Source of the DNA: Candidatus Pyrohabitans jungbluthii
GTDB taxonomy: Archaea > Hydrothermarchaeota > Hydrothermarchaeia > Hydrothermarchaeales > BMS3B
Direction of reading: 5' to 3'
Length of the DNA: 64,000 nt
Assembly (NCBI GenBank): GCA_002010065.2
Contig: MTMD02000002.1
Coordinates: 320,001 to 384,000 of the forward strand
Shown here: piece by piece, positions 1-29,361 of the stretch
How positions within the stretch are numbered: position 1 is the stretch's first letter
Layout: each line of letters starts with the position of its first letter
Program-made: the position numbers and the translations under genes
Notes under the pieces: generated by a model
Told to the model about the DNA's origin: nothing
What the model saw: the letters and a program-made list of their open reading frames with translations, nothing else
Databases searched by the model: none

Positions 1-792
1 CTCGCCCAGCTCCTCTATAGCGCGCAACACGTAGTCGCGCCTGCCTACGCTCACACCGCCGCTGGTGACAACGCAGTCGTAGCGCTTCGCTGCGCTGGCA
101 AGCGCTTGCTTTGTGGCTTCGTAGTCATCCTCAATTGCGCCGAGATAGCTCGTCTCGCATCCCCACTGCTCCAGCAGAGCCATTACCACGAAGGAGTTTA
201 TGTCGCGGAGCAAGCCCCTGGCAATTTCATTGCCCGTTGCGAGCACAGCTACTCGAGGCTTGCGATACACTTCCACCTCTTCGATGCCCTGGCCTTTTAG
301 AATTCCAAACTCCTGTGCTCTTATCCTTGTTTTCGCTCTTAGGATAACCTCCCCCTTGCGGTAGTTGCTTCCCTGAGGCACCACCTTGGTCCCCTTCTCA
401 ATGGGGATACCGTACAGCAATTCGCCCTCAAGGCGGGCATCCTCTAAGCGGAGTACGCAATCTGCACCCGGAGGTAGGAACGCTCCCGTTGCGATGTACA
501 TCGCCTCGCCTTCGCGAAGCTCAGGTAGAGACTCATAAGCATCGCCAGCGTAGATGCTCCCTACCACGCGCAGAGGATAACGTTCAGCATCTTCGCTACG
601 CATTGCGTAGCCATCGTAGCTGGCTATGTCGTGGGGTGGTGAGTCCTCTGTGGCGAGGATATCCTTAGCCAGCTCCCGTCCGAGGAGCGAGAGCTCCACC
701 CTCGCAACTTCCGTCTCGCGATTGAAGTAAAACCCCTCTCTTAGCGTGTGGATAATCTCCCGCGCTCTGCTCAGAGGAACCAGCGTTTCCAC
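1..792 (-). CDS. moeA: Molybdopterin molybdenumtransferase MoeA (3' end runs off the window)
   Basis: Not in the ORF track. Manual translation from GTG at 792 gives METLVPLSRAREII...LGRELAKDILATEDSPPHDIASYDGYAMR...YIATGAFLPPGADCVLRLED...VVTSGGVSVGRRDYV, which are MoeA motifs. Confidence 0.9.
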   Translation of the reverse strand, partial: METLVPLSRAREIIHTLREGFYFNRETEVARVELSLLGRELAKDILATEDSPPHDIASYDGYAMRSEDAERYPLRVVGSIYAGDAYESLPELREGEAMYIATGAFLPPGADCVLRLEDARLEGELLYGIPIEKGTKVVPQGSNYRKGEVILRAKTRIRAQEFGILKGQGIEEVEVYRKPRVAVLATGNEIARGLLRDINSFVVMALLEQWGCETSYLGAIEDDYEATKQALASAAKRYDCVVTSGGVSVGRRDYVLRAIEELGE

Positions 793-799
793 CCCTCAT

Positions 800-1104
800 C
801 ACCTAAACGTTTCTATTTAAATTTCTCTAATATTTAAACAAATACAAATATAAAAACCTTTTTAGAAAAAAAATTTTATAATTTAAACCGAAGCAATTTT
901 AATTTTATAAAAGCTTTATATTAGTAGATTCAATTATTTACTGGTTCAGATATTTTATTATATTTTATATACCGCTTTAGTATATAAGAATGAAAAATCT
1001 TAATTTCTACAATTATTGAAAAATAATTCTAAAAAGGTTTTTATTTTACCACCACACTAAAAAATTAAAATGTATTTTTAATTTAAAATGGGGGGAATGA
1101 TAGA
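800..1104. promoter_or_regulatory. AT-rich divergent promoter region between moeA and the molybdoenzyme operon
   Basis: Very AT-rich 300 bp intergenic region with several TTTTATAA/TATATAA TATA-like boxes; the flanking genes diverge. Confidence 0.6.
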
Positions 1105-3741
1105 ATGAAGATATCTAGGAGGGAATTCTTGAAGAAGTCGAGCCTTATAGCAGGAATGGCTGCTCTTGGCTCGCAGGTGGTTTCGCTGAGCAGTGTAGCC
1201 GCAGAGGCGAGCAAAGCTCAGGGAAAAGTTAAGCAGGTTGCAGCCACAGTAAGCGAAGATGTTCTCATACCCAGCACGGACATAATGTGTGTGAACTTCT
1301 GCGGAATAAGGGTGAGGAGGGTAAACGGCGTAATCCGTGCGATCTACGGCAATCCGGCGAGCCCCTACAACGTTGGACACCTATGTCCCAAGGGGCAGAG
1401 TGGTATTTTTGATGTGTACAATCCATACAGGGTAAAGGCTCCGCTCAAGCGCACAAATCCCAACAAGGACCCGAGGGAGGATCCAAAGTGGAAGGAGATA
1501 AGCTGGGAGGAGGCATTAAACGAGGTTGCAGCAAAACTCAAGGAAGTTAGAGCAAAAGACCCGAGGGGTTTGACATTCTTCTGGGGTCACGGTAAATATC
1601 TGGTGCAGGACAAGTACCTGAAAGCCTTCTGCAAAGCCTTTGGCACGCCAAACAATGTTCACCGCACCACCGTATGCGAAGCTGCTCGCCACGTTGCGGA
1701 TGAGCTCACCTGGGGTGGACATGGATTTCTCCCGGATCTGGAGTACACCCGCTACTACGTGAACATGGGGGCGAACTTCACAGAGGGGGAGCAGTGGGCT
1801 CGCTGGCTGGACAGAACATGCATGGATGCCATAGTTAACAGGGGACTCAAGCTCGTTGTGGTTGAGCCCAGGCTGAGCAATCTCGCAGCGAAAGCTCACG
1901 AATGGATACCAATAAAGCCTGGTACAGACGTGGTATTCCTCTTAGCCATGGCGAAAGAGCTCATACTCAACGGCTACGTGGATAAGGAGTTTCTGATAGA
2001 GTACACAGATGCACCCTTCTTAGTTGGCGAGGATAAGAAGTTCCTGAGAGATGAGAACGGCAATGCTCTAGTGTGGGACAAGAAAGCAAGCCAGGCGGTA
2101 CCCTATGATGATGCCGAAGAGATAGCTCTTGATGCAAAGGTTACAGTAGATGGCAAGGAGTACAGAACCGCCTTCAGGGTGTTCAAGGACTATGTGCTCA
2201 GCCTAAGCCTGAGTGAGGCAGAAGAGATAACAGGCGTGCCCGCAGAGACCATAAGGAAGGTCGCCAAGGAGTTTGGGGAGAACGCCCACATCGGCGCCAC
2301 GGTGGTAATGGACGGCAAGGTGCTGCGCTATCGCCCCGTTGCCATACATACCTTCAGGGGAATGAGCGCAAAGGAGTATGGAAGCCAGCAGTGGAGGGCA
2401 GCCTGGATTGTGCAAATGCTTGTGGGCAACTTAGATGCTGTGGGAGGAATTCGACTATACCATGCAAACCCGGACTACAAGAACATGAAGCCCTCCACGT
2501 GCGAATACCCGCCCAGCAGGGTAGACCTTGCAGGAAGCGTATTCTTCCCACATGCCACGCACAATGTGGCGCAGCAGCCTGCCCTTACGTTTGCGGAGCC
2601 TGAGAAGTACGGCTTGCCCTATAAGCCGGAGATGGCGCTGGTGTATGCCACCAACAGGCTCATCTCCACCTCTGAGGTGGAGAAGCAGATAGAGGGCTTC
2701 AAGAAGGTATACATGGTAAACATAAACCTCGTGCTGGACGAGATTGCCCAGATGTCTGACATAGTACTGCCAAACAAGAGCTACCTCGAGTGCTGGCACT
2801 TCAGCCCAACAAGGTGGACTCCTGACTCGAGCCACAGCGCAATCCGCCAGCCGATTGTAAATGCCTACAACCTGCCCTACCAGGACTTCGACATCCTCTG
2901 GGAACTGGCGAAGAGGGCTGGCTTCTTGGATGAGTACGTGGATGCCATAAACAAGAACTGGAATCTCAAGGACGACAAGAAGTTCGAGAAGGGCAGGGAC
3001 TACGACGCCAAGGAATCGGTGAAGATTATATGGGAGGCAAAGACAGGCAAGCCCCTCGAGTATGCCATAAAACACGGTCTTGTGGCGAAGAAGGTGAGCG
3101 TGGAGGAAAGGTACCTGCATGATGCTGAGAAGTTCAGAGGCAAGGGCAAACCAAAGATGCACTTCTATGCAGAGCAGCTTGTTCATACAAAGGAGAAAGT
3201 CCTCGAAATCGCAAAGAAGGAGCCAAAGGTCAGGAAGGTGTTTGAGGAGTGGTACGGAGAGACCGATCTTGAGAAGCTCCTTGACATAAAGCTTTCGCCA
3301 ATACCCCTGAAGGAGCACGCCTTCCCGGTGCCGCACAAGCAAGCAAAGGACTACCCGCTGTATCTCATAACCTACAAGAGAATGTACAGAAACCAGGCAA
3401 ATCCAGATGCCTTAAACCCGGTTCTCAACGAGGTTGCCCACGACTCCAGCTACAATTACATGCTGATTAACACCGTCAAGGCCAAGGAGCTCGGGATAAA
3501 GGATGGCGACGAAGTATGGATAGAGTCCAGAGTTGGAAAGGTCAAGGCAATAGCAAAGCTTACTGAGGGAATTCGCCCGGACACGGTGGCTGTGAGCTAC
3601 CACTATGGAAGGTTCTCTTCAGCCTTCCCGGAGTATGCCAAGAAGGGCACTGCAATAAACTTCGTTCTGGAACTCCATCCAGACATGATCTCAGGGCACA
3701 ACTCCTTCCTAGACACCAAGGTTAAGGTGTACAAGGCGTGA
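1105..3741 (+). CDS. Tat-exported molybdopterin (bis-MGD) oxidoreductase catalytic subunit, Psr/Phs/Arr/Anr clade
   Basis: Twin-arginine SRREFLK; FS0 motif D-x2-C-x3-C-x27-C (TDIMCVNFC...LCPKG); ArrA-like KRTNPNKDPREDPKWKEISWEEAL; putative Mo-ligand Cys in GTPNNVHRTTVC; C-terminal molydopterin-binding domain. Confidence 0.9.
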   Translation: MKISRREFLKKSSLIAGMAALGSQVVSLSSVAAEASKAQGKVKQVAATVSEDVLIPSTDIMCVNFCGIRVRRVNGVIRAIYGNPASPYNVGHLCPKGQSGIFDVYNPYRVKAPLKRTNPNKDPREDPKWKEISWEEALNEVAAKLKEVRAKDPRGLTFFWGHGKYLVQDKYLKAFCKAFGTPNNVHRTTVCEAARHVADELTWGGHGFLPDLEYTRYYVNMGANFTEGEQWARWLDRTCMDAIVNRGLKLVVVEPRLSNLAAKAHEWIPIKPGTDVVFLLAMAKELILNGYVDKEFLIEYTDAPFLVGEDKKFLRDENGNALVWDKKASQAVPYDDAEEIALDAKVTVDGKEYRTAFRVFKDYVLSLSLSEAEEITGVPAETIRKVAKEFGENAHIGATVVMDGKVLRYRPVAIHTFRGMSAKEYGSQQWRAAWIVQMLVGNLDAVGGIRLYHANPDYKNMKPSTCEYPPSRVDLAGSVFFPHATHNVAQQPALTFAEPEKYGLPYKPEMALVYATNRLISTSEVEKQIEGFKKVYMVNINLVLDEIAQMSDIVLPNKSYLECWHFSPTRWTPDSSHSAIRQPIVNAYNLPYQDFDILWELAKRAGFLDEYVDAINKNWNLKDDKKFEKGRDYDAKESVKIIWEAKTGKPLEYAIKHGLVAKKVSVEERYLHDAEKFRGKGKPKMHFYAEQLVHTKEKVLEIAKKEPKVRKVFEEWYGETDLEKLLDIKLSPIPLKEHAFPVPHKQAKDYPLYLITYKRMYRNQANPDALNPVLNEVAHDSSYNYMLINTVKAKELGIKDGDEVWIESRVGKVKAIAKLTEGIRPDTVAVSYHYGRFSSAFPEYAKKGTAINFVLELHPDMISGHNSFLDTKVKVYKA

Positions 3742-3755
3742 GGGGGTGAGGGAAG

Positions 3756-4427
3756 ATGGTTAAATATGGTCTTGTCATCGACCTGAAAAAGTGTATAGGC
3801 TGCAGGAGCTGTGTCGCTGCGTGCAAGATCGAGAATATGGTTCAGCCTGGTAATTACTGGAACTTTGTCCTCGAGTACGAGCAGGGCAAGTATCCGAATG
3901 TTCGCAGAGTCTTCGTTCCCATAAATTGCCAGCACTGCGAGAATCCGCCCTGTGTTAAGGCATGCCCGGCAAAGGCGATAAGCAAGAACGAGTATGGCGT
4001 TGTGCTGATAGACTACGACAAGTGCAAGGGCTACAGGTACTGCATCGCCGCATGCCCCTACGGAGTAATCCACTTCATTGACAAGATAAGGTACCTCTAT
4101 CCAGAAGACAATCCCGATAAAGCTCCCACACCGTATGAGCAGATTCCCGCCGAAGCGAGACATCCACTGCACAGAAAGAAGCCTGGCATTGCTGAGAAGT
4201 GTACCCTGTGCTGGCACCGCATTGAGAAGGCCCTGAAAGAAGGGAAGGAGCCGGGAAGCGATTACGACACATCGCCAGCGTGCGTTCCCGTTTGCCCAGC
4301 AGGTGCGAGATATTTCGGCGACCTCGATGATCCGAACAGCGTGGTTTCAAAGCTCATCGCTGCGAGGCGGGCGATCCAGCTCAAGAAGGAGTACGGCACA
4401 AGACCGCAGGTTTACTACCTGGTGTGA
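3756..4427 (+). CDS. Four-cluster Fe-S electron-transfer subunit (DmsB/NrfC/PsrB/ArrB family)
   Basis: MVKYGLVIDLKKCIGCRSCVAACK, CQHCENPPCVKACP, CKGYRYCIAACPY, KCTLC...PACVPVCP. Confidence 0.93.
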   Translation: MVKYGLVIDLKKCIGCRSCVAACKIENMVQPGNYWNFVLEYEQGKYPNVRRVFVPINCQHCENPPCVKACPAKAISKNEYGVVLIDYDKCKGYRYCIAACPYGVIHFIDKIRYLYPEDNPDKAPTPYEQIPAEARHPLHRKKPGIAEKCTLCWHRIEKALKEGKEPGSDYDTSPACVPVCPAGARYFGDLDDPNSVVSKLIAARRAIQLKKEYGTRPQVYYLV

Positions 4428-4437
4428 GGTGATGAAG

Positions 4438-4833
4438 ATGAAGTTTAAGTTTCTGGTGTTCGCTTCCCTTGCTCTTCTCTTCCTCTTTGCAGCGTGCGCC
4501 CAGAAGCCAGAGGTCGAGGAGAAGGTGATTGAGAAAGAAGTGCCTATGAACCTCCCTGATACAGCGAAGAAGATAGCGGCTGGCGAAATTGAAGTTGGTG
4601 AGGAGTTTGGCATGGAGATTGGGCAGCGCTACCATACAATACACGCAGATACCCTCGGCTTAGCCTGCACCACCTGTCACGTTAAGAGCTATGCTGATGA
4701 CTACATCTACCAGAGGAAGTACAAGGTTCCTGTGAGAGGCGCCCCCGGACCTGTGGACAGAGGCGTCTGCCTGGGCTGTCACAAGGAGAATGGACCGGCG
4801 GCGACATCGCTCTATGGCACAGCCAGTGACTGA
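4438..4833 (+). CDS. Diheme c-type cytochrome lipoprotein
   Basis: Start re-called at ATG 4438 after SD GAGGTGA; lipobox LFAAC; two CxxCH motifs (CTTCH, CLGCH). Confidence 0.8.
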   Translation: MKFKFLVFASLALLFLFAACAQKPEVEEKVIEKEVPMNLPDTAKKIAAGEIEVGEEFGMEIGQRYHTIHADTLGLACTTCHVKSYADDYIYQRKYKVPVRGAPGPVDRGVCLGCHKENGPAATSLYGTASD

Positions 4834-4864
4834 CCTCTCTTTTCTTTCTTTTTGAGGTGCTAAT

Positions 4865-5560
4865 ATGGAGCAGCTTAATAAGCTTGCGGAGAACAGGAGC
4901 AGGATTTACGGCTTTCTCTGCGAGTTTTATAACGGGGTGCCCAGAGAGGAGTTCGTGAAGAAGCTTCTTAGTGAGGACTTCCTTAGGGAGTTGAAGAATC
5001 TAGCAACCCTCGCGGAGGGTGAACTCAGAGAGGGTGCAGAACTTTTAGAGCAATTCCTCAGGCTTAACTCTGAAAGAAACATAGAGGAGCTGACAGAGCA
5101 GCTTGCGGTTGAATTCACAAGGCTTTTCAGAGGCATAAAGCCAAAGTACAGTCCCCCACCACCGTATGAGTCTGTGTACAGAGACGAAGGCAGGGTGATG
5201 GGCGCTTCTACGCTTCAAGTGATGAACACTTACCTCGATGCTGGTTTTGCCCTGAACGAGGAATACGGAGGACCCCCGGATTATATAGGCACAGAGCTCA
5301 AGTTTCTTGCGCTTGCGAGCTACCGCGAGGCAGAGAGCTGGGGAAAGGGCGATAGAAGGGAAGCGGAGAGATTGCTTAGGGTACAGCAGCGCTTTATTGA
5401 AGAGCATGCTCTGGCATGGATTCCAAGGTTCTGCGATGTAATACTGCAGGAGGCTGAGAGCGAGTTTTATAAAGGTGTGGCGAAGCTTACTCGCGGGTTT
5501 CTGAGACTGGATGCAGAGCAGATAGCAGAGACCCTAAAGCTTGTGGAGGAAGAAGGATGA
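4865..5560 (+). CDS. TorD/DmsD-family molybdoenzyme maturation chaperone
   Basis: EFTRLF...PPPYESVY, PPDYIGTELKFL, FIEEHALAW, FYKGVAKL motifs. Confidence 0.92.
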   Translation: MEQLNKLAENRSRIYGFLCEFYNGVPREEFVKKLLSEDFLRELKNLATLAEGELREGAELLEQFLRLNSERNIEELTEQLAVEFTRLFRGIKPKYSPPPPYESVYRDEGRVMGASTLQVMNTYLDAGFALNEEYGGPPDYIGTELKFLALASYREAESWGKGDRREAERLLRVQQRFIEEHALAWIPRFCDVILQEAESEFYKGVAKLTRGFLRLDAEQIAETLKLVEEEG

Positions 5561-6141
5561 AGGAGCTCGATTTCGCAATTGCTATTCACGGGCATAAGGC
5601 TCCGGGAATAGTGCTTGGCGTGAGGATGGCAAAGCTTGCGTATGAGCTTCTTGGCAAGCCCAAGCGAGGCAGGGGCTTAACAGGCATCGTGGAAACAAAA
5701 GTCTGTCTTCCCGATGCTCTGATGGCAGTCGCAGGCACGACGCCGGGCAATGGAAACCTCATAATCTATGACCTGGGCAAGCTTGCCCTCTCTCTCACCA
5801 AATATCCCTCAGGAGAGGGATATAGAGTTGCGCTCAGAAGCGAGGCAGCAGGCTTAGACGAAGCACTTGAAAAGTTCATGTACCGCAAGGGTAAGCTCAC
5901 CCACGAGGAAAGAGACAGGGTGGCGGACATATTTTACAGCATGGATGAGAAGTACTTTAAGGTAGAGAAGGTCAAGCTCACCCTGCCTTTAACACCAACA
6001 CGCACACCCATAGCCAAGTGCTCTTCTTGCGGCGAGCTTCAGCCTCAGGGATTTATGCTTAATGGAAGCTGCAGGGTATGCGCGGGCGAGAGCTATTTTG
6101 AAAAGCTGGAGGAGGTGATAACGTATGTTAGGACAGAGTGA
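5557..6141 (+). CDS. FmdE-family protein with C-terminal zinc finger
   Basis: [27 protein letters not shown]; C-terminal CSSCGE...CRVC. Confidence 0.8.
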
Positions 6142-6271
6142 GCTTCTTATAATCTTGGGCATTGTTGTTCTGCTTTTCGGCGCAAATAAGCTGCCTGAGC
6201 TGGCACGCTCACTTGGCAGAGCCAAGGTGGAGTTTAAGCGTGGCATGGAGGATGAGGGTAGCGAGAAATGA
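6125..6271 (+). CDS. tatA: Twin-arginine translocase TatA/E subunit (48 aa; below the ORF-track cutoff)
   Basis: [40 protein letters not shown]; SD GGAGGTGA upstream; ATGA overlap with the next gene. Confidence 0.9.
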
Positions 6272-6289
6272 TCGGCTCTGGAGAAGTGG
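6218..6289 (+). repeat. 72-bp inverted repeat, copy 1 (tatA/tatB junction)
   Basis: Matches the reverse complement of 11263-11334 at 71/72 positions on manual comparison. Confidence 0.85.
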
Positions 6290-6486
6290 TCGTCATAACT
6301 CTTCTCGCCCTCCTCTTCTTTGGCCCTGAAAAGCTTCCTGAGCTGGCAAGAAGTCTTGGAAAGGCGTATGCCGAGTTTAAAAATGCCCAAGAGGAAGTTG
6401 AAAGGCAGATAAATAGGGAAATGCTGGAAGAGAAAAATATAGATATAAAAAAAGATATTGAATTGATAAATGAGGAAGCAGATTAG
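6268..6486 (+). CDS. TatA/TatB-family subunit
   Basis: [34 protein letters not shown]. Confidence 0.9.
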
Positions 6487-6532
6487 CTATGCTTCTCAAA
6501 AAATTTATAACTATGGCAATAAATGTAAAATT

Positions 6533-7438
6533 ATGCGTTTCCTTATTTTACTAATCCTGCTGCTCTTCTCTGCCTGCACCGCAGAGGAGCAGGCTATCGA
6601 GGTGAACTTCAGCGATGTGGTTGAGATTAGAAATCCGGGAGAAGAAGATAGCGCTGTGGTAATTGGGGTTTCCAACATTCTCTCACCTGTGGAGACGGTA
6701 ACCTACTATGAAGACCTCTTTGACTACCTTTCAAAAAAGCTTGGAAAGAAGGTAAAACTTGTACAGCGCAGCAACTATGCCGAGATGAATGAACTTTTGA
6801 GGCTGGGGAGAGTTGACCTCGCCTTTGTGTGCTCTCGAGCTTATATAGCCGGAGCCATGCAGTTTGGGCTGAAACTCCTCGTGGTGCCTGTGGTTTACGA
6901 TGAAGGACCTGTTTACTACTCCTACATAATAGTGAATAAAGACAGCAACATAAACAGCTTCGTAGAGCTTCGTGGGAAAAGCTTTGCCTTCGCAGACCCT
7001 CTCTCAAACTCAGGGGAGCTTTACCCCAGGTATCTGCTTGCGAAGATGAACGAAACCCCGGACACCTTCTTCTCCCACTACTTCTACACCTACAGCCACG
7101 ACAAGAGCATCGAAGCTGTAGCCTCTGGCATAGTTGACGGCGCTGCAGTGGACAGTCTGATATGGGACTATAAAAATATGACTGAGCCATGGGTAACCTC
7201 CCGCACGAGGATAATCAAGGTTTCTCCACCCTTTGGCATTCCACCTGTCGTGGCAAGTCCATACAGCGATAAGGAACTGGTTGAAGAGATAAGGAACATA
7301 CTCCTGAGTATGCATGAGGATGAGGATGGCAGAAAGATACTAAGGAAGCTCCACATAAAGCGCTTCATACTCCCTGAAAATGCTTCCTACGCCTCCATAG
7401 AAGAGATGCTGCACGTGGTTGAAGGAAATGTTACCTGA
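6533..7438 (+). CDS. PhnD-fold oxyanion-binding lipoprotein, AioX/ArxX/ArrX-like
   Basis: ATG 6533 lies about 25 nt after AATTTATAA; lipobox LFSAC; VQRSNYAE, DLAFVCS (Cys), FADPLSNSG, YSHDKSIEAVASG, AVDS; directly upstream of a kinase and not with ABC permease/ATPase genes. Confidence 0.82.
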   Translation: MRFLILLILLLFSACTAEEQAIEVNFSDVVEIRNPGEEDSAVVIGVSNILSPVETVTYYEDLFDYLSKKLGKKVKLVQRSNYAEMNELLRLGRVDLAFVCSRAYIAGAMQFGLKLLVVPVVYDEGPVYYSYIIVNKDSNINSFVELRGKSFAFADPLSNSGELYPRYLLAKMNETPDTFFSHYFYTYSHDKSIEAVASGIVDGAAVDSLIWDYKNMTEPWVTSRTRIIKVSPPFGIPPVVASPYSDKELVEEIRNILLSMHEDEDGRKILRKLHIKRFILPENASYASIEEMLHVVEGNVT

Positions 7439-9446
7439 GGTAAAGTTTGGCGTCAGGGCAAAGTTCGTCCTTTCAATAATACTCGCTCTTTTAATTCTTG
7501 GCGCCCTTTCAGCAGTTATAATGCAGACTGTCTTAAAGTCGGTGCTCCTACAGGGGCTCACCAGAGACGGCTTTACCCTTGGTGAAAACCTCGCCACGGC
7601 TATAACAGAGCCCCTTCTGACAGAGGATGTGGTCTCCCTGCATCGCATGCTGAAGGAGTTTAAGTCCAGCCGGGAGGATGTTGCTTACTTATACGTGCTC
7701 AATCAGAATGGCGAAGTTGTGGCGAGCACTTTTGAGGGGGGCTTCCCGAGGGGGCTGCTAAACCTTCGCGGAGCTGGAGTAACGACCATAAAGAATGAAA
7801 GGGGAGAGCACATCCGCGACCTTGCCATACCGGTGCTTGAAGGCAAGGCTGGAGAGCTCCACCTTGGGCTCACAGAAGAGCTTGTCAGAGCAAGAGTTTC
7901 TGAAGCTACGCGAAAGCTGATGCTCGGCATAACTTTGCTTTTGCCAATAGCTGTGCTTGTTGGCTATGCCTTTGGAAACCTTATCACCACGCCTATAAAA
8001 GAGCTGGAGGTAGGAGCGAGAGCCCTGGAGAGGGGAGAGCTTGATTACAGGATAAAGCTTCGAAGCAGAGACGAGTTTTCTGTGCTTGCAGAAGCCTTCA
8101 ACAGCATGGCTTCTGAACTTGAAAAGAACATCCAAGAAATAAAGAGATACTCATGCTCTCTAGAAAAGCTGGTGGAGGAGCGCACCAAGGAGCTTCTCCT
8201 TCTCCAGAGGATTAACAACCTTTTAAATACCGGTGCAAGCCTTGAGGAGATTCTCGATGAGATTACCAAGGGGATAGTGAAGGTCTTCGGCTACGACGCC
8301 TGTGCTGTGCACCTGCTCAAAGGCGAAGATACGCTGGTGTGCAGAAGCTACTACATGGATTCAGCGCTGATAAAAAAGCTTGAAGAACTCACGGGCAAGA
8401 GGACAGACGGGTATGAGATGAAGCTCACGGAGGACAACCCCATAAGCAGGATAGTTTTTGAAAGGGAGCCGTTTTTAACTGACGATGTGGAGAATCTGAT
8501 AAAATACCATACTCAAGATAGAAAGATAAGAGTATTGGCGAAGGTTATAACTAAGCTTGTGCCTGCACGCTTTGGTTTGGGGATCCCCCTGATATCCAGG
8601 GAGAGGGTTGTGGGAGTTATCGGAATAGGGAGCAGAAAACCCCTGGAAGATAGCGATGTGACTAGGCTTATGAACTTCGCCTCCCAGGCGGGCATCGCTG
8701 TGGAGAAGGCTATACTCGAGGAGAGGCTACTTGAATACTCTCGAGAGCTTGAGCGTAAGGTAGAGGAGCGCACAAAACAGCTTCTCCACGCAGAGCGCTT
8801 AGCTACAATAGGTACCCTTGCCTCAGGAGTAGCGCATGAGATAAACAACCCCATAACAAGTATAATGCTTGATGCTGAAAGGATCAGGGACGAGATGCTC
8901 GATGAGAAGGAGGTAAAGGAGATAGCAAAGGGGATAGTAAAACAGGTGGAGAGGATTCAGAGGATAACCCGAAGCCTGCTCATGTTTTCAAGGCATGCGG
9001 AGATGGAGGCAAGGGAGGTTGACCTCAACCAGATTGTGGAGGAGTCTCTGAATGTGCTGAAGCCGAAGCTTAAAAGAGTGACGGTGGAGAAGAGGCTGGA
9101 AAAGCTACCCCACGTGTGGGGCGACCCGGCTCAGCTTCAGCAGGTCTTTGTCAACCTTATTCTCAATGCTGTGCAGGCAATGCCTGATGGCGGCAGGCTA
9201 ACAGTAATAACAAGAAGGGAAGGTAGGGAGGTGGTGGCGGAGGTTAGCGACACAGGTGTGGGCATACCTGAGGAGCACTTAAGCAAGATATTTGACCCCT
9301 TCTTTACGACAAAGAAGGTAGGGGAGGGCACGGGATTAGGGCTGAGTATCTGCTTAGGCATAGTTGAGCGCCACAATGGCAGAATAGAAGTAAAGAGTAA
9401 AGTAGGAGAAGGAACAACATTTACTGTGTGCCTGCCTCTGAGGTGA
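7428..9446 (+). CDS. Membrane sensor histidine kinase (TM-extracellular domain-TM-HAMP-GAF-HisKA-HATPase)
   Basis: HAMP (PIKELE...RDEFSVLAEAFNSM), GAF-like middle region, H-box AHEINNP, N/G boxes NLILNA, DTGVGI, FFTTK, GTGLGL. Confidence 0.93.
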   Translation: MLPEVKFGVRAKFVLSIILALLILGALSAVIMQTVLKSVLLQGLTRDGFTLGENLATAITEPLLTEDVVSLHRMLKEFKSSREDVAYLYVLNQNGEVVASTFEGGFPRGLLNLRGAGVTTIKNERGEHIRDLAIPVLEGKAGELHLGLTEELVRARVSEATRKLMLGITLLLPIAVLVGYAFGNLITTPIKELEVGARALERGELDYRIKLRSRDEFSVLAEAFNSMASELEKNIQEIKRYSCSLEKLVEERTKELLLLQRINNLLNTGASLEEILDEITKGIVKVFGYDACAVHLLKGEDTLVCRSYYMDSALIKKLEELTGKRTDGYEMKLTEDNPISRIVFEREPFLTDDVENLIKYHTQDRKIRVLAKVITKLVPARFGLGIPLISRERVVGVIGIGSRKPLEDSDVTRLMNFASQAGIAVEKAILEERLLEYSRELERKVEERTKQLLHAERLATIGTLASGVAHEINNPITSIMLDAERIRDEMLDEKEVKEIAKGIVKQVERIQRITRSLLMFSRHAEMEAREVDLNQIVEESLNVLKPKLKRVTVEKRLEKLPHVWGDPAQLQQVFVNLILNAVQAMPDGGRLTVITRREGREVVAEVSDTGVGIPEEHLSKIFDPFFTTKKVGEGTGLGLSICLGIVERHNGRIEVKSKVGEGTTFTVCLPLR

Positions 9447-9450
9447 GAGC

Positions 9451-10107
9451 GTGGCGAGAGTTCTTGTGGTTGACGACGACGAAGCTGTGTGTAGAAGTTT
9501 GAAACAGACGCTAACCTCAAACGGCTTCAGTGTGGATGCCACAACTTCACCACAGGAGGCTATTGAACTTCTGCGCGATAACAGCTATGACATTGCAATC
9601 TACGACCTTGTAATGCCCGACATTGACGGCATTGAGCTTCTCAGAGAGACAAAAAAGATAAACTCTGCCCTGCCTGTGGTTATGATAACAGCTTTTGCAA
9701 CAATTGAGAGCGCCGTCGAAGCGATGAAGCGGGGTGCAAGTGACTATATAGAGAAGCCTTTCACCAAGAAGGATATTCTCACAATTGTGAGGCGTGCTTT
9801 AGAAGAGGCCAAGTTCAGAAAGAGCATTTTAGAGCTCTCCACCAGTAGAGAGGTTGAAGAGGTTATAAGCTCCCTCAACTCCCCGCTGAGGAGATTGATA
9901 CTCAGCTACCTTGAGGAGAGGGGGGAGAAGCTCAGCTTCACCCAGCTCCAGCGAGGCGTAGGCGAGCGCGATGCCACAAAGTTCAACTTCCACCTGAGAA
10001 AGCTGAAGGAAGCAGGTCTGGTGGAGCAGGACGAAGATAAGCGATACACACTTACACAGAAGGGCAGGAAGGCTTTGGAGGTAATAAGCAGCCTTGCTGA
10101 GGTGTAG
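9451..10107 (+). CDS. Response regulator, REC fused to ArsR-like winged HTH
   Basis: VLVVDDD, YDLVMP, ITAF, KPF; C-terminal LNSPLRRLIL...FTQL...KFNFHLRKLKEAGLV...YTLTQKG. Confidence 0.9.
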   Translation: MARVLVVDDDEAVCRSLKQTLTSNGFSVDATTSPQEAIELLRDNSYDIAIYDLVMPDIDGIELLRETKKINSALPVVMITAFATIESAVEAMKRGASDYIEKPFTKKDILTIVRRALEEAKFRKSILELSTSREVEEVISSLNSPLRRLILSYLEERGEKLSFTQLQRGVGERDATKFNFHLRKLKEAGLVEQDEDKRYTLTQKGRKALEVISSLAEV

Positions 10108-10143
10108 CTAGCAGGCAGATTTTTATCTCTCCATGCTTTTGAA

Positions 10144-10303
10144 TGGACCCTGATTATGATGTTCAGCCTGAAGGGATACCTTATTGTACAGACCCCGCTG
10201 GATGTCATCCACATCGCCATTCCCCTCCTGTTCTACTTCGTAATTAAATAGGAGCTGACTATTCGAAGACAGTGCCCTGTCTTTCACCACAGCCAGCAAT
10301 AAG
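10144..10303 (+). pseudogene. acr3: Decayed fragment of an Acr3 arsenite/antimonite efflux transporter
   Basis: Manual translation gives WTLIMMFSLKGYLIVQTPLDVIHIAIPLLFYFVIK*, then shifted frames IGADYSKT and LSFTTASN. These match the Acr3 C-terminal motifs (MFSLKG..I...PLDV..IAIPLL.YF; GADY....LSFTAASN). Confidence 0.75.
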
Positions 10304-10364: not shown

Positions 10365-11015
10365 TTATAATCTCTCCGTCTCCAGTCTCAACAACAGTCT
10401 TTCCACTATTGCCACACCTTCGCTGGTTAGCTGATACTGTCCTGCCCTGTTTTTACTCACTATTCCCGCCTCGCTGAGAACGCGAAGATGAAAGCTCAGT
10501 TTTGATGGGTCGTCCATCTCTATGCTCCTGGCAACCTCAGAAAACCTCCTCGCGCCTGCGTGAAGGAGGTAGAGAGCTATCTTCTTGCGTATCGGGTTTG
10601 AAAGCGCCTTGATTACAGCATCATTAAGCCTCGCCTCAACTTTGCGCTCTAACCTCGCCTCTTCTAAGGTTTTCTTGACGATACTCACCAGCTCGCCTAC
10701 ATTGAAGGGCTTTACAAGAAAGTCACTCGCTCCGAGCTTCATCGCCTCCACCACGTCAGCTATAGAGGGAAAGGCGCTGATTATTATCACCTTGGTCTCC
10801 GGTGAAATCCTCTTTATCTCATCCAGTGCTTCTAGGCCACGGATATCTGGAAGCACCAGGTCGAGGAGCACCAGGTCAGGTTGATTTTCCGTCAGCCTGG
10901 CAATCCCATCGGCGGCGCTCTCCGCGGTCAACACCTCAAAGCCATACCTGCGCAGTGCCTTTTCCAGCACGCTTGTAGTGTGCCTATCGTCATCCACAAT
11001 AAGTATGGTGCTCAT
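10365..11015 (-). CDS. Response regulator, REC + ArsR-like wHTH (no adjacent kinase)
   Basis: ILIVDDD, LDLVLP, KPF; ALSNPIRKKI...RFSEV...SKLSFHLRVLSEAGIV. Confidence 0.9.
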   Translation of the reverse strand: MSTILIVDDDRHTTSVLEKALRRYGFEVLTAESAADGIARLTENQPDLVLLDLVLPDIRGLEALDEIKRISPETKVIIISAFPSIADVVEAMKLGASDFLVKPFNVGELVSIVKKTLEEARLERKVEARLNDAVIKALSNPIRKKIALYLLHAGARRFSEVARSIEMDDPSKLSFHLRVLSEAGIVSKNRAGQYQLTSEGVAIVERLLLRLETERL

Positions 11016-11284
11016 ATCCCCTTTCCAGTCTTTTCCTTTATTTCATCCAGAATCTGGGCGATTGATTTATTCTCTGTGGATATGCCCAGATTTTCCGCGA
11101 TTTCCGTAAACTCCCTCTTATACACGCTCAGCTCTCCTGTCAGATCCCTCTCCAGCTCTTCCGCTGCTCTTCGATACTCTGCCACTGCCTTGCCCATACT
11201 CCTTGCCAGGTCTGGAAGCTTCTCAGGCCCAAAGAAGAGGAGGGCGAGAAGCGCTATGACAGCCACTTCTCCAGAGCCAATCAT
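11012..11284 (-). CDS. TatA/TatB-family subunit
   Basis: [33 protein letters not shown]. Confidence 0.9.
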
Positions 11285-11334
11285 TTCTCGCTACCCTCAT
11301 CCTCCATGCCACGCTTAAACTCCACCTTGGCTCT
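11263..11334 (-). repeat. 72-bp inverted repeat, copy 2
   Basis: Reverse complement of 6218-6289 with one mismatch. Confidence 0.85.
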
Positions 11335-11430
11335 ACCAAGGCTGCGGGCAAGCTCAGGCAGCTTATTTGCGCCGAAGAGAAGCACAACTAAAGCAAGCAC
11401 CACCAGAAGTTCTGTGTTCCCTACCAGCAT
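11281..11430 (-). CDS. tatA: TatA/E subunit (49 aa; below the ORF-track cutoff)
   Basis: [49 protein letters not shown]; SD AGGTGA upstream. Confidence 0.9.
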
Positions 11431-11581
11431 ACTATCACCTGGTATTTACTTTTGAATCACCTATCCTTAAAACTTTATTTTAAAAGAAATTTTATATAAA
11501 GGAGATTTTATATTAAAAAATAAAAAGTAAAATTTTACTAAAGTTAACAAAGCTTGATACTATAGCATCCAAGAAAGAAAA

Positions 11582-12574
11582 ATGAGCGGAAGGAAAACAT
11601 TGAGATGGGTGGCAATACTTCTGCTGGTTCTCCTCGCAGCATACGTCTCAGGCAAAAATAGCGGGGACATGCCTGAAGTTGAGTTAGAGAAGTCTCATTA
11701 CTACTATGATGTGCTAGTGCATGGGGGTTACCTGTACGCCACCTCCCCCTGGGGCTTGGAGGTGTTCTCTATTGACGGGGGAAAAATTTCCCTCACAGGT
11801 GGTTATGAAACCAAGGGTGAGGCTCAGACGCTTGCTCTCTCCAAGGAAAGACTCTACCTCAGCGATGCCACAGGCAGGCTATATGTGTTCGATGTAAGCA
11901 CGCCCGCACGACCGCGTTTGATAGCTGAGCTAGAGCTGGACAAAATCGCCCAGAGGATTGTAATTTCTGGAGATAGGGCATATCTAGCGTGTGTCTCTTC
12001 TGGGCTGGTAATTCTGGACCTTCAGAACCTTGAAGAGGTTGGATTCTACAAGCCCAAAAACTACAGCTATCCTAAGGGAATATGCCTCCAAGATGGAAAG
12101 CTGTACATCGCAGACTTCACCATGAGGCTTTACGTCGCAGACGTGGTGGACGACTCCCTAATTTTTCTGGCCTCCCACCCAACCAGCAGCGTGGCCCACG
12201 ACGTTCTCGCTTGGGAGAGCTTTGTCTACGTTGCAAGCTCCGACGGGGGCGTGGACGTATTTAAGGTCTCTGGAAAAGAGCTGGAATTGGTACAGAACCA
12301 TCCTCTCCCCGGCTTTGCTCTTCGCCTGGCCAGGTATGGAAATTACCTCCTGGTTACCCTCGCCGATGAAGGTGTGGCTTTGCTCGAGATACAGAAGGAC
12401 GGCAGGCTTGAGCTTGTTGCACAATACGACACCCCTGGCAACGCGTACGGCATAGCTCTTGCCAATGGCTACGCATATGTGGCGGACTATGACGGAGGCA
12501 TAGTGGTGTTTGACCTCTCGCAGCTTCCGGAGCTTGTGCCAGTGGATTTCGCTAGGCCAGAGGTGAGCCCATGA
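11582..12574 (+). CDS. Membrane-anchored/secreted LVIVD-repeat beta-propeller protein
   Basis: N-terminal hydrophobic segment; repeated units such as GLEVFSI, RLYVFDVSTP, GLVILDL, YDTPGNAYGIALANGYAYVADYDGGIVVFD. Confidence 0.8.
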   Translation: MSGRKTLRWVAILLLVLLAAYVSGKNSGDMPEVELEKSHYYYDVLVHGGYLYATSPWGLEVFSIDGGKISLTGGYETKGEAQTLALSKERLYLSDATGRLYVFDVSTPARPRLIAELELDKIAQRIVISGDRAYLACVSSGLVILDLQNLEEVGFYKPKNYSYPKGICLQDGKLYIADFTMRLYVADVVDDSLIFLASHPTSSVAHDVLAWESFVYVASSDGGVDVFKVSGKELELVQNHPLPGFALRLARYGNYLLVTLADEGVALLEIQKDGRLELVAQYDTPGNAYGIALANGYAYVADYDGGIVVFDLSQLPELVPVDFARPEVSP

Positions 12575-14028
12575 AAGCAAGCGTTAGCACCAAGATGATG
12601 CTCGCCATAGGCTTAATCGTATTTCTCTCCGTAGAGGGCATCTTCTACTACATGAGCGAAAGCCACGAGAGGAGCATGATGGAGCAGCTCCGCCAGCAGG
12701 CGAAGAGCATCGCTGATCAAATACTCCTGATAAGGCTTTGGGCGGCGGAGCATAGAGAGCGCGTTGCGCCTGTGCCCGCGGAGCTCACCTACGAGCTCTC
12801 AGAACTTTCAAATGAACTGTACGACTACAAGATTCAGCTTGTAACCCTAAGACCCAGAGACCCCGAAAACTATCCCTCTGATAATTTTGAGAGAAGGGTG
12901 ATTCAGGAGTTTATACAGGGAAAGAGCAAGGAAGAGTATGCGATAAATGGCGAGTTTTACGAGTATGCTGTACCTCTCTATGTAGAAGAACCCTGCCTTA
13001 AATGCCACATTGACCAGGGCTATCGCGTGGGCGACCTGCGCGGCGCACTGGTGGTAGAGATACCAGTTAGCGAGGTGATGGCATCTCTCGCAAAAACCAG
13101 GAAGGAACTTATTGTCTATGGATTTGTGATTTCTCTCGGCATTATGCTGGCGATTCTGGGTATTATGAGGATAGTGGTCATAAAGCCTTTGAACAAGGTT
13201 AAGGAAGCCGCGATGAAGCTAGCGAAGCGCGACTATTCTGCTCGCGTTGAGGTGAGCAACGACGATGAATTGGGCGAATTAGCGAGGGTTTTCAACAGCA
13301 TGGTGGAGGAGCTCAAGAACAAAGAGGCGCAGGTGATTCAAAGCGAGAAGATGGCGACCGTTGGTAAGCTCGCCGCTGGAATAGCGCATCAGATAAACAA
13401 CCCCCTCGCCAATATAATACTCTACTCCCAGATTCACCGTGAAGAGGTGGACGATGAGGAGACAAAAAAGGTGCTGGAGATAATTGAAGAGGAAGCTTCT
13501 CTCGCCTCAAAGGTTGTACAAGGCCTTCTGGACTTCTCCAGGTATCGGGAATTCAAGCGCGAGGCTGTGCAGATTAACGAGGTTATAAGAAAAATGTTAA
13601 ATATACTTAAACCTCAACTACAGTACAAGAACATTAAGCTGGAACTAAACCTCGACGAGAACTTGCCGGAGATTCAGGGCGATTCAGCAAAACTTCTCGA
13701 CGCCTTCATAAACATTGCCACAAATGCGATAGATGCCATGAAGGAAGGTGGAAGGCTGAGTATACGCACAGGTAAAAGCGATGGAAAAGTGGTGGTGGAA
13801 ATCGCCGACACCGGCATGGGCATACCTGAGGAGCATCTCAGCAAGATATTTGACCCCTTCTTCACCACCAAGGAGGTGGGCAAGGGCACGGGCCTAGGAC
13901 TTTATATTACTTATAGTATAATTAATAAGCATGGTGGCGAGATAGAGGTGGAGAGCAAGGTCGGAAAGGGTACAAAATTTACTATATATCTACCAGGTGA
14001 GGTGAATGCAGGAAATACTTATAGTTGA
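12571..14028 (+). CDS. Heme-c-binding sensor histidine kinase (DUF3365/Tll0287-like domain-HAMP-HisKA-HATPase)
   Basis: Extracellular [13 protein letters not shown]...[15 protein letters not shown]...[11 protein letters not shown] between two TM helices; HAMP; H-box AHQINNP; HATPase boxes. Confidence 0.88.
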
Positions 14029-14659
14029 GGACGACCCCAAACTTAGAGAGGGGCTTAGAATACTCCTGGAAAAGAAGGGGTACTCGCCCAAGATCGCCGA
14101 GGATGGGGTAAAGGCAATAAATATGATTAAAAAGCAGAAATTTGACCTGGTAATCACTGATCTCGTGATGCCAGGCGCTGATGGCATGGAAGTGCTGAGG
14201 AATGTTAAGAAGTACTCCCCCCTCACCAAGGTGATAATAATCACCGCCTTTGGTACCGTCGATAGTGCCGTGCGCGCGATGAAGATGGGGGCGAGCGACT
14301 ATATACTAAAACCCTTTAAGGTGGAAGAGATAAGAAACAAGATTCTGCGTCTGCTGGAAGAGACCCGCATAGAGGAGGAAAGCAGGGAGAAGATGGAGAC
14401 GCAGGAAACCGGCAAGGACGTGCTCAAGTCTCTCTCAAACCCCATAAGGCGCAGGATAATGGAGTACCTCCATGCCAAGGGTAAGGCGAGGTTCACGGAT
14501 ATAATGAACTACCTTGGTATAGATGAGCCAGCTAAACTCGGCTTTCACCTGCGGGTGCTGAAGCAGGCCGGGCTAATAGCGCAGGATGAAAACCGCCACT
14601 ACTATATCTCCGAGGCTGGAAAGCGCGCTTTCATGACACTGCTTTCCCTGGAAGGGTAG
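14006..14659 (+). CDS. Response regulator, REC + ArsR-like wHTH
   Basis: ILIVEDD, TDLVMP, KPF; SLSNPIRRRI...RFTDI...KLGFHLRVLKQAGLI. Confidence 0.9.
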   Translation: MQEILIVEDDPKLREGLRILLEKKGYSPKIAEDGVKAINMIKKQKFDLVITDLVMPGADGMEVLRNVKKYSPLTKVIIITAFGTVDSAVRAMKMGASDYILKPFKVEEIRNKILRLLEETRIEEESREKMETQETGKDVLKSLSNPIRRRIMEYLHAKGKARFTDIMNYLGIDEPAKLGFHLRVLKQAGLIAQDENRHYYISEAGKRAFMTLLSLEG

Positions 14660-14831
14660 CATTTAAATAAAATCGTTGAATTCGGATAGAAGGTTAAATT
14701 GATATATTTGAAAGGAGGGGGGCGACTAAAAATTTAGTTTAACTATATGCAGTGATATAAACTAATTTTTAAAAAAAAGATTTTATCATTTTAAAATTTA
14801 GTGAATATCAATGCGAAGCGGAGGTGAAAAT
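14660..14831 (+). promoter_or_regulatory. AT-rich napA promoter region with SD GGAGGTGA (14820-14827)
   Basis: AT-rich intergenic region with TATA-like boxes; strong SD before ATG 14832. Confidence 0.55.
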
Positions 14832-17291: not shown

Positions 17292-17395
17292 AACCTTTTT
17301 TATTTTTAAAGCAGGTTTTGCTAAATTTTATTTTATAATTAGATTTATAAATTATTGGAGGGTTATACTTAAAATAAAAGTTTTTGGTGTTATAT

Positions 17396-17845
17396 ATGCG
17401 GCTTGCAGTAGTGCTTTTCCTGATAATGCTCATACTCGCAGGGTGTGTTGAGAAGGAAGAGGCAGTTGTAGCTACAGAGAAGAAACCTGCACCGCCGCTG
17501 GTTGAGGAAGCTCCCGAAGCCCCTGAAACCCAACTTCAGAAAGAAAAAGTTGAAAAAAAAGCTGGACTGACAATAGCCGATATTCTAAATAACCCAGCGG
17601 CATACGAAGGCAAGGAGGTAACACTGCGCGGCAGAGCTACGCCTGGCTTAGCCTTTGAATTTGTGGATGAGCAGCCCTATTTGCTGAGCGATGGTACGGG
17701 GGAGATATGGGTGATTACCCGGGCTATGATGCCTATGCAGGGGGCTGAAGTAACGGTGAGAGGCGAGGTGGTGGTACCCTACCAGATTAAGGGCCGCCAC
17801 TACGAGGTTGCGATCATTGAGATTGATAGGGAGGAAGAGTATTGA
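17396..17845 (+). CDS. Lipoprotein with C-terminal OB-fold-like domain
   Basis: Lipobox LAGC; Pro/Glu linker; TIADILNNPAAYEGKEVTLRG...YLLSDGTGEIWV...GAEVTVRG. Confidence 0.7.
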   Translation: MRLAVVLFLIMLILAGCVEKEEAVVATEKKPAPPLVEEAPEAPETQLQKEKVEKKAGLTIADILNNPAAYEGKEVTLRGRATPGLAFEFVDEQPYLLSDGTGEIWVITRAMMPMQGAEVTVRGEVVVPYQIKGRHYEVAIIEIDREEEY

Positions 17846-18585: not shown

Positions 18586-18586
18586 C

Positions 18587-19432: not shown

Positions 19433-19437
19433 AAGAG

Positions 19438-20783: not shown

Positions 20784-20872
20784 ACTAAATTTTAATTTTA
20801 AAATCTCTTTTAAACCACTTTTTAAAAAAACCTATTTAACATATGAGGGGAAGGTGATTACCGGGTGAGAAT

Positions 20873-22357: not shown

Positions 22358-22382
22358 GCTTCCTGTTCTTTTTCCTTTTTTT
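22358..22382 (+). terminator. Oligo-T archaeal terminator
   Basis: CTTCCTGTTCTTTTTCCTTTTTTT directly after the stop codon. Confidence 0.5.
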
Positions 22383-22432
22383 GAACATGTTCGCACAAAA
22401 TTATTTTATAAGTTTGGGGGTTATTTATTACT

Positions 22433-22552: not shown

Positions 22553-22557
22553 GTACT

Positions 22558-29352: not shown

Positions 29353-29361
29353 ACACGGGGT

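Follow-up and report, generated by a model that had tools for sequence, protein, structure and literature searches.

Arsenic-type molybdoenzymes and the operon of Candidatus Pyrohabitans jungbluthii

Surveys of arsenic (As) and antimony (Sb) redox metabolism rely on AioA, ArrA and ArxA, to which AnrA is a recent addition. Control of arr by a three-component module of binding protein, sensor kinase and regulator (XSR) has been described in Chrysiogenes (PMC5908839), and AnrA has been reported as a dimethyl sulfoxide (DMSO)-reductase-family metalloid-oxyanion enzyme distinct from ArrA (PMC11521347, PMC13284237). The archaeal arr and arx clusters of 'Ca. Methanoperedenaceae', as described in PMC13685797, carry molybdenum (Mo) and iron-sulfur (Fe-S) subunits, a TorD-like chaperone, XSR and adjoining tatA genes, and were judged to have been acquired horizontally; XSR modules and tatA beside archaeal arr/arx clusters are already on record there. 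An operon with a divergent Mo subunit is analyzed here in the archaeon Candidatus Pyrohabitans jungbluthii, within the 64,000-nucleotide stretch of DNA (the window) at positions 320,001-384,000 of contig MTMD02000002.1 (GCA_002010065.2). Coordinates are relative to the window.

Ten co-oriented genes on the forward strand occupy 1105-10107, all of them intact and separated from their neighbors by at most 31 nt or overlapping. Their identities were called by Pfam and NCBIfam profile scans plus open reading frame (ORF) analysis of the window, and every part named by the original prediction was found in the same orientation. The ten genes are best read as one operon, which would encode a respiratory enzyme on the outer face of the membrane plus its own sensor. 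With a probability of roughly 0.55, the enzyme is an oxidoreductase of arsenic or antimony oxyanions that is coupled to cytochrome c and controlled by the three-component module.

1..792, extending past the window edge, reverse strand: MoeA-like molybdopterin molybdotransferase (Pfam MoeA_N, MoCF_biosynth)
793..1104, no strand: AT-rich intergenic region, 312 bp, presumed divergent promoters
1105..3741, forward: catalytic Mo/W-bis(pyranopterin guanosine dinucleotide) (bisPGD) subunit, 878 aa (Pfam Molybdop_Fe4S4, Molybdopterin, Molydop_binding)
3756..4427, forward: four-cluster Fe-S electron-transfer subunit, 223 aa (Pfam Fer4_11)
4432..4833, forward: diheme cytochrome c, ~133 aa (two CXXCH motifs, lipobox-like FAAC)
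4865..5560, forward: TorD/DmsD-family proofreading chaperone of twin-arginine translocation (Tat) (Pfam Nitrate_red_del, 103.5 bits)
5557..6141, forward: FmdE-like protein with a C-terminal Cys-rich finger (Pfam FmdE, 97.7 bits)
6125..6271, forward: tatA-like gene 1, 48 aa (ORF and sequence, tblastn similarity to TatA)
6268..6486, forward: tatA-like gene 2, 72 aa (Pfam TatA_B_E, 59.9 bits)
6470..7438, forward: ArrX/AioX-type periplasmic binding protein X, PhnD-fold (PDB matches to ArrX and AioX)
7419..9446, forward: sensor histidine kinase S (HAMP, GAF, HisKA with H473, HATPase)
9451..10107, forward: response regulator R (REC plus an archaeal winged helix, DUF7347/ArsR-like)
10117..10303, forward: broken remnant of an Acr3/SBF-type arsenite efflux gene (two pieces in different frames, stop between)

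The operon shares with the Methanoperedenaceae clusters the archaeal Mo subunit, Fe-S subunit, TorD-like chaperone, XSR and archaeal tatA. In contrast, the enzymes described in that source are ArrA-type (RGRY) or Arx-like with SGRN(R/Q)G, and its clusters are given with ArrC/ArxC subunits and no diheme cytochrome gene (PMC13685797). The genes of the operon are 62-81% identical to relatives within the phylum, the nearest being Hydrothermarchaeota metagenome-assembled genomes (MAGs) at 77-79% with the same gene order. The MoeA-like gene, divergent from the operon, is likely a cofactor-supply gene, and the same divergent position is found in the relative L022 (81% identity). In the intergenic region a near-palindrome, AAAAA(CC/GG)TTTTT, occurs as two inverted copies at ~851-862 and ~1040-1051 (within 846-883 and 1011-1051). 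The block upstream of the start codon at 1105, including one copy, is kept in the closest relatives L022 and L001, and the near-palindrome is a candidate regulator site or promoter element.

Phylogenetic position and active site of the catalytic subunit

The catalytic subunit belongs to the DMSO reductase (Mo/W-bisPGD, MopB) superfamily and to its complex iron-sulfur molybdoenzyme type, as seen from three Pfam domains, the Cys ligand, the Tat signal and the four-cluster Fe-S partner. The phylogeny of this subunit and its homologues, hereafter the family, was computed with LG+G4 on 78 rows and with LG+C20 and posterior mean site frequencies (PMSF) on 54 rows, supported by the Shimodaira-Hasegawa-like approximate likelihood ratio test (SH-aLRT). 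References were picked by curated score, six ArrA and four PhsA lying above the cut-off, while the TtrA-like references (1414-1538 bits) are themselves below theirs (1750). Two ArxA-type references were recognized by FGRGWG, both adjoining family members (L053, L072); a further candidate ArxA reference, locus L091, was left out of the tree owing to a wrong long ORF.

In both trees the family formed a clade of its own with SH-aLRT support of 99-100, outside the Arr/Arx clade (support 100), outside the PhsA/Phs-like clade and outside the TtrA-like clade. An exclusive union of the family with Arr/Arx was rejected by the approximately unbiased (AU) test at p 0.0019 (35 of the 54 rows, LG+G4, with the group named after the tree was seen). 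The enzyme is hence nested in none of PhsA/Psr-like, TtrA-like or ArrA/ArxA, in line with the separate lineage that had been proposed for it. Its sister is a large radiation of unnamed enzymes (P0127-P0216) of 840-930 aa with other active-site loops, e.g. GGGG...C-G-N-x-x-H, many of them apparently without a Tat signal. A scan of the 56 nearest 50%-identity representatives from this radiation gave no NCBIfam match at E <= 1e-130. Representative P0217 (YGRNKMG), which branches basally in the larger clade holding the family, may be a member of the Methanoperedenaceae Arx-like group.

Profile scores place the enzyme far below every curated class. Against the ArrA model NF041714 it reached 205.3 bits (cut-off 1600); genuine ArrA genes from elsewhere reach 1676-1742 bits on that model. 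Its highest NCBIfam score, 274.1 bits, was on the PhsA model NF012032 (cut-off 694) and came mostly from residues 1-302, and the TtrA model NF011567 gave 75.3 bits in the C-terminal region only (cut-off 1750). Among solved structures, the best matches were ArrA of Shewanella sp. ANA-3 (6cz7, E 4.3e-48, full length) and Thermus PsrA (E 6.5e-41, N-terminal part). The subunit further resembles ArrAB (NF041714/NF041715) in being Tat-exported with an N-terminal Fe-S motif, in placing its Cys Mo ligand within an N-x-x-H-x-x-x-C-E-like segment, and in having TorD and a four-cluster partner like ArrB. Unlike ArrAB, the operon has a diheme cytochrome c gene between the Fe-S and TorD genes, and no gene for an ArrC-type membrane anchor is present in the window. 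Judged by its sequence, the catalytic subunit is none of ArrA, ArxA, PhsA/PsrA or TtrA.

The N-terminus carries the Tat motif SRREFLK at residue 4, followed by the FS0 motif D59-x2-C62-x3-C66...C94. The first FS0 ligand is Asp in the sub-branch of the window (13 D versus 37 C among family sequences with the motif) and co-varies with a one-residue insertion (GHLC) ahead of the fourth Cys; the change from Cys to Asp could alter the cluster type or potential. Around the active site the subunit reads W160-G-H-G-K-Y165 and H186-R-T-T-V-C191-E-A-A-R-H196, corresponding to the strongly conserved family motifs H-G-[HQ]-G-[KR]-Y-L and N-x-[VI]-H-R-T-T-x-C-E-x-x-[RK]-H.

The ArrA motif (R/K)GRY with H189, K198 and Y210 (ANA-3 numbering, PMC13685797) is not conserved in the program alignments, where HMMER and MAFFT put W-G-H-G opposite ArrA R163-G-R-Y166. 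A register shift of two residues would pair H-G-K-Y with R-G-R-Y and make each contact conservative. The ArxA motif XGRGWG is likewise missing from the subunit, the family position reading [WH]-G-[HQ]-G-K-Y against FGRGWG in the neighboring ArxA-type genes. GQGRY was read by 2 of the 76 proteins (from 71 loci) in the Mo-subunit cluster, a few of which are other Mo enzymes (AioA, ArxA). The claim that the enzyme carries WGHGKY (160-165) and HRTTVC (186-191) with neither RGRY nor GRGWG therefore stands as read, with the qualification that HGKY is a conservative (R/K)GRY variant if the register is shifted by two residues.

ArxAB(C) with arxXSR belongs to the same superclade and has a comparable G-x-G pattern (G-R-G-W-G, versus G-[HQ]-G-K-Y in the family); XSR with sigma-54 regulators in bacterial loci and denitrifying and phototrophic proteobacterial hosts are also common to both. 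The family differs in lying outside the Arx-containing clade and in having no GRGWG and no arxB2 or ArxC-type gene; in L053 and L072 the GRGWG ArxA-type genes are separate genes beside it.

Electron-transfer and maturation partners

The order enzyme, Fe-S subunit, cytochrome and TorD is conserved across the family. The Fe-S subunit has 15 Cys and no signal peptide, and all of its NCBIfam scores are below cut-off (ArrB 178.8 bits with a cut-off of 450, DsrO 156, TtrB 141). In the cytochrome, the heme motifs are CTTCH and CLGCH and the N-terminal hydrophobic stretch ends in FAAC, by which it appears to be a small, lipid-anchored lipoprotein tethered to the membrane. Both CXXCH motifs and H67/H70 are invariant in the family; the cytochrome matches no NapB model and gave weak, below-cut-off cytochrome c7/c3-type matches only. 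The invariant histidines, together with these weak class-III signatures, suggest low-potential bis-His hemes. NapAB offers an analogy only, in that a Tat-exported Mo subunit is paired with a small diheme c-type cytochrome and some family loci have a NapC-type quinol dehydrogenase, but the family Mo subunit is of the Psr/Arr superclade with a separate Fe-S subunit and a cytochrome that gives no NapB match.

These parts appear to be those of a standard periplasm-facing complex iron-sulfur molybdoenzyme, in which the cytochrome c would replace the quinol-binding anchor. The FmdE-like protein is presumed to be a maturation factor. In 19 loci a 540-aa polyferredoxin (polyFd540) was found, which has no hydrophobic segment and is read as a cytoplasmic maturation or electron protein rather than a membrane anchor.

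An arsenic-type sensor with an archaeal regulator

The likely start of X is the Met at 6533, ahead of a hydrophobic stretch ending in FSAC, and the AFVC motif lies at residues 118-121. X is closer to the arsenate-binding ArrX (6x6b, E 9.3e-62) than to the arsenite-binding AioX (E 1e-40), with lesser matches to PtxB (E 8e-21) and a weak one to TtrS (E 2.2e-4). The AioX pocket was described as Y88, C106, Y131, S161, S163, H192 and D210, with PhnD lacking the Cys (PMC5908839), and all seven positions are kept in X as Y103, C121, Y149, S179, S181, H210 and D228. X is single-copy in the genome. It is accordingly, as had been proposed, a member by sequence of the AioX/ArxX/ArrX subfamily beside a kinase, a regulator and a Mo enzyme. 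The same arrangement beside the Mo enzyme recurs in 25 of 80 homologue loci.

In the kinase, two hydrophobic segments bracket an outward-facing loop of ~118 aa and are followed by the HAMP, GAF, HisKA and HATPase domains. The module resembles the described XSR systems in X and in the kinase and regulator directly after it; it departs from them in the GAF domain of the kinase and in the output of the regulator, which is an archaeal winged helix instead of the AAA+/sigma-54 type (AioR/ArxR) or the FixJ/CitB type (ArrR). A bacterial-type three-component oxyanion sensor is here joined to an archaeal winged-helix regulator.

The proteobacterial X proteins beside the family are closer to AioX (190-206 bits) than to ArrX (125-135). 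Since XSR phylogeny was reported to track organismal phylogeny and selectivity not to be set by the pocket residues (PMC5908839), an ArrX-like or AioX-like character says little about the ligand.

Distribution of the family

A pattern scan of one genome per species gave at least 599 stretches, of which at least 581 encode a relative, so that the family spans 581 or more species-level genomes, bacterial and archaeal. The loci counted here and below are the best 80 of these relatives; many are short, and 33 reach at least 20 kb. Their archaeal lineages are Hydrothermarchaeota, Archaeoglobaceae, Pyrodictiaceae and Bathyarchaeia, and the bacterial ones Aquificaceae, Thermodesulfobacteriota, Nitrospirota, Kryptonia, WOR-3 and many Alpha-, Beta- and Gammaproteobacteria. 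Carriers include Thiobacillus, Sulfuritalea, Accumulibacter, Rhodoplanes and Azospirillum, with Sulfuricystis multivorans, Rhodoplanes elegans DSM 11907, Noviherbaspirillum sp. ST 5-3 and Photobacterium proteolyticum 13-12 among those cultured. Many carriers are lithotrophs or denitrifiers, and many oxidize sulfur. The proposal of a lineage under bacterial-style XSR control in an archaeon thus holds for the host and the sensor module, but the lineage itself is not archaeal and is mostly bacterial.

Within the phylum of the window the family is accessory and patchy, occurring in 6 of 38 genomes, in 3 of the 5 from the genus and in none of the 6 from the remainder of the family-level group. The sole match of a plasmid search was a 28%-identical Sporomusa gene. 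In a 50%-identity library the family comprises a few representatives at 51, 45 and 40%, and beyond these no full-length relative exceeds 39% identity. Among the best 120 matches of each homologue search no specific family name was found, and cluster look-ups added none; the entries carried generic labels, among them 'molybdopterin-dependent oxidoreductase', 'anaerobic selenocysteine-containing dehydrogenase' and 'phenylacetyl-CoA:acceptor oxidoreductase'.

In the literature searched, whose supplementary trees and tables may hold relevant sequences, no name or description of the family clade was found. Four published candidates were compared and set aside: the 'Unk' clade of Duval 2008, given with a B-C-A gene order (PMC2500031), NaoABC, described as NapA/Rieske-like (PMC11521347), the Thioalkalivibrio candidate, described as SoeABC (PMC6620896), and the published Sulfuritalea 'arrA', as that MAG has a separate ArrA-like gene of 984 bits.

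Arsenic genes around the homologues

The core partners dominate the neighborhoods, namely the Fe-S subunit (77/80 loci), TorD (68/80) and the diheme cytochrome (59/80, by tblastn). X follows in 25 loci, a sigma-54 regulator in 20, the soluble polyferredoxin in 19, Acr3 in 15, ArsC in 13, FmdE in 9 (all in archaeal or thermophilic lineages), a PhsC-like cytochrome b in 7, AioA and a NapC/TorC-type cytochrome in 6 each, and ArxA in 2. When the count is confined to the 33 loci that reach 20 kb or more, 16 have X, 11 have Acr3 and 15 have some ars, aio or arx gene. By a rough, uncomputed estimate, acr3 would be expected in about 1% of random 20-kb windows. All 8 Acr3 examples scanned were confirmed by curated models, as were AioA/AioB, ArsA and grx-ArsC. 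The arsenic-gene association that was to be sought around the homologues is therefore strong.

A genome-level search, covering 50 of 79 carrier genomes, found true AioA (>1000 bits) in 8, ArrA-like proteins (~1000 bits) in 2 and ArxA-like proteins in 2. XSR also adjoins the enzyme in genomes that gave no match to Aio, Arr or Arx, e.g. L046/G841. Upstream of the enzyme gene, 5 loci have sigma-54 promoter-like sites, and each of the 5 belongs to the 20 that encode a sigma-54 regulator; the background is 26 in 2744 windows and 1 in 78 on the reverse strand; a sixth match, in the truncated locus L061, was set aside as an artefact.

Three loci or groups of loci show how the surroundings vary. The 49-kb Azospirillum MAG contig G805:C519 (part of which is L053) bears AioA at ~1378-3756, the family member at ~20346-22898, an ArxA-type gene with FGRGWG at ~29022-31478, and Acr3; it holds three different arsenic-type molybdoenzymes in one island. 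In Photobacterium (L044:9373-9981, L034) a NapC/TorC-type tetraheme cytochrome gene stands directly ahead of the family operon and no XSR or ars genes occur within 10 kb, so that the same core has a different wiring. A trio of an MTH895/ArsE-type thioredoxin-like protein, an ArsP/SaoE-like permease and a SoxH-related metallo-hydrolase recurs near the family in L005, L041, L046, L049, L050, L052 and L079.

The acr3 remnant in the window is real, as had been noticed from the sequence: 10117-10254 matches positions 215-260 of the 327 of the Acr3 model TIGR00832 (E 9.8e-10, 38.1 bits) with one stop, and a second piece (FTTASN) runs in another frame up to ~10303. It falls short of the full-length Acr3 threshold of 282.8 bits and is a pseudogene remnant. 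It is the sole Acr3 match in the genome (1.99 Mb, 99.95% complete), in which an ArsP query also found no match. At the same position, L022 has an intact 304-aa Acr3-like membrane protein with 48.8 bits to the Acr3 model.

Proposed function and alternative explanations

An arsenic-group oxyanion is suggested as the substrate because of the sensor and the gene neighborhoods. The substrate would be arsenate/arsenite or antimonate/antimonite, bound in a basic pocket of K164, Y165, R187, R195 and H196 near the Cys ligand C191. The signal-less Fe-S partner would be exported together with the Tat-exported Mo subunit, with TorD, FmdE and the two TatA proteins serving maturation and export. Electron flow would connect Mo and FS0 with the four Fe-S clusters, the two hemes and the membrane electron chain. 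Oxyanion-loaded X would dock on the kinase loop, and the kinase would phosphorylate the regulator to switch on the promoter upstream of 1105. The separate clade and the arsenic-gene association support the original prediction of an uncharacterized metalloid-oxyanion lineage, the substrate and direction being inferred from sequence.

The direction of the reaction is nearly balanced, with a slight lean to reductase. Reductase is favored by the invariant H67/H70 and class-III cytochrome-like motifs, by the NapC/TorC-type quinol dehydrogenase adjoining the enzyme in 6 loci and the PhsC-like cytochrome b in 7, by the islands that the family shares with AioA or ArxA (both on one Azospirillum contig), and by the closeness of the window's X to ArrX. 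Oxidase is favored by the cytochrome c partner and the nearby moeA, both of which aio operons likewise have, and by the NapA/NapG/NapH-like nitrate reductase cluster 4.7 kb downstream in the window. The lithotrophic or denitrifying hosts and the AioX-like proteobacterial X proteins with sigma-54 regulators of the AioR/ArxR type (PMC5908839) point the same way.

Several observations weigh against an arsenic or antimony substrate. In the program alignments, the arsenate-binding R165, Y166, H189, K198 and Y210 of ArrA read H, G, R, H and F/variable. The PhsA model on the N-terminal third (274 bits) outscores the ArrA model on the whole protein (205 bits). With no intact Acr3 or ArsP and a remnant only, the genome fits weak arsenic selection in this lineage. 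In the DNA examined, 44 of 80 loci have neither an ars, aio or arx gene nor X. Aio, Arx or ArrA-like enzymes co-occur in 12 of 50 genomes, by which the true substrate may be none of theirs. Sulfur genes are found in some loci (flavocytochrome c sulfide dehydrogenase in 4, TauE in 5, rhodanese in 1).

The last of these points leads to the strongest alternative, an unlikely one, that the enzyme acts on a sulfur or selenium compound (thiosulfate, polysulfide, tetrathionate, sulfite, selenite or thioarsenate) and that the arsenic-gene link is indirect, e.g. through thioarsenic chemistry or shared islands. The sulfur genes listed above are joined by SoxH-like metallo-hydrolases in 4 loci, many carriers oxidize sulfur, and the PhsC-like cytochrome b accompanies 7 loci, although flanking arsenic genes (Acr3 15, ArsC 13) outnumber those of sulfur. 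PhsA gives the best single NCBIfam score and members of the Psr/Arr/Ttr superclade were described to act on S, Se and As compounds (PMC7331816), but 274 bits is far under the cut-off of 694 and in the tree the family falls in neither the PhsA nor the TtrA-like clade. PhnD-fold domains also sense tetrathionate or thiosulfate, as in TtrS, to which X has its weak match; X nevertheless keeps the Cys and six other pocket residues of the AioX subfamily and matches ArrX at E 9e-62, and AioX, ArxX and ArrX were reported to bind no thiosulfate, tetrathionate, sulfate or selenate in vitro (PMC5908839).

Somewhat less probable still is that the family is the antimonate reductase AnrA (Desulfuribacillus stibiiarsenatis, Geobacter sp. 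SVR) or its direct orthologue group under another name. The Geobacter cluster is reportedly written anrXSRBAD, with an XSR module; in this order B stands before A and there is no cytochrome gene, in contrast to the conserved order of the family. AnrA is, like the family, a DMSO-reductase-family enzyme outside ArrA in the published accounts (PMC11521347, PMC13284237), and an Sb(V)-reducing Azospirillum MAG was reported with 'arrA' and 'anrA' (PMC12183865), while the Azospirillum contig described above has an ArxA-type gene beside the family. However, no Geobacter or Desulfuribacillus protein was among the best 120 matches of each homologue search, which involved no sequence-level comparison with AnrA, and no Bacillota genome is among the best 80 loci.

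Action on another oxyanion, e.g. phosphite, or a decaying relic without present role is improbable, since the kinship of X to the phosphite/phosphonate-binding PtxB and PhnD, the suitability of bis-His hemes for a very low-potential donor, the broken acr3 and the patchy occurrence in 6 of 38 genomes are met by ten intact, tightly packed genes that are 62-81% identical to phylum relatives, by a PtxB match far weaker than those to ArrX or AioX, and by flanks in which no ptx or phn transport genes were seen.

Other features of the window

Directly after the operon and the acr3 remnant, a second respiratory module extends over 10365-23748.

10365-11015, reverse strand: REC/winged-helix regulator
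11012-11284, reverse strand: tatA
11582-12574: LVIVD beta-propeller protein
12571-14028: kinase with a Tll0287-like sensor domain
14006-14659: second-module regulator
14811-17291: NapA-like enzyme (674 bits, below the 904 cut-off)
20873-22357: multiheme cytochrome

The NapA-like enzyme is followed by NapG-like, NapH-like and FrhB-like proteins, and the module ends with the multiheme cytochrome and a 410-aa ORF matching only the C-terminal part of COX1. At 49003-51437, NrdD is encoded as a 648-aa ORF and an overlapping 175-aa ORF, in which the last NrdD segment is fused to a thioredoxin/glutaredoxin-like domain; this arrangement could be a frameshift or a split gene. Archaeal marks in the window are Nre, an archaeal prepilin peptidase and class III signal peptides. 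A tRNA scan found no tRNA in 1-30000, and scans of the window for bacterial promoters and terminators gave chance level only.

Significance of the family

Taken by its sequence, the family appears to be an uncharacterized cytochrome-c-coupled lineage of the Psr/Arr/Ttr superclade with arsenic-type sensing, and not a categorically new one, the comparison with AnrA covering gene order. It is tentatively proposed, at somewhat less than even odds, to be a fourth, hitherto unrecognized class of As/Sb bioenergetic molybdoenzymes beside Aio, Arr and Arx, wired to c-type cytochromes instead of a quinol-binding anchor and present in hundreds of species, including denitrifying sulfur oxidizers, phototrophs and vent archaea. 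As several carriers are cultured, the substrate question is directly testable. If the proposal is true, surveys based on aioA, arrA and arxA markers miss part of the microbial metalloid redox cycle, and if the family turns over As or Sb oxyanions, a lineage of at least 581 species-level genomes would escape them.

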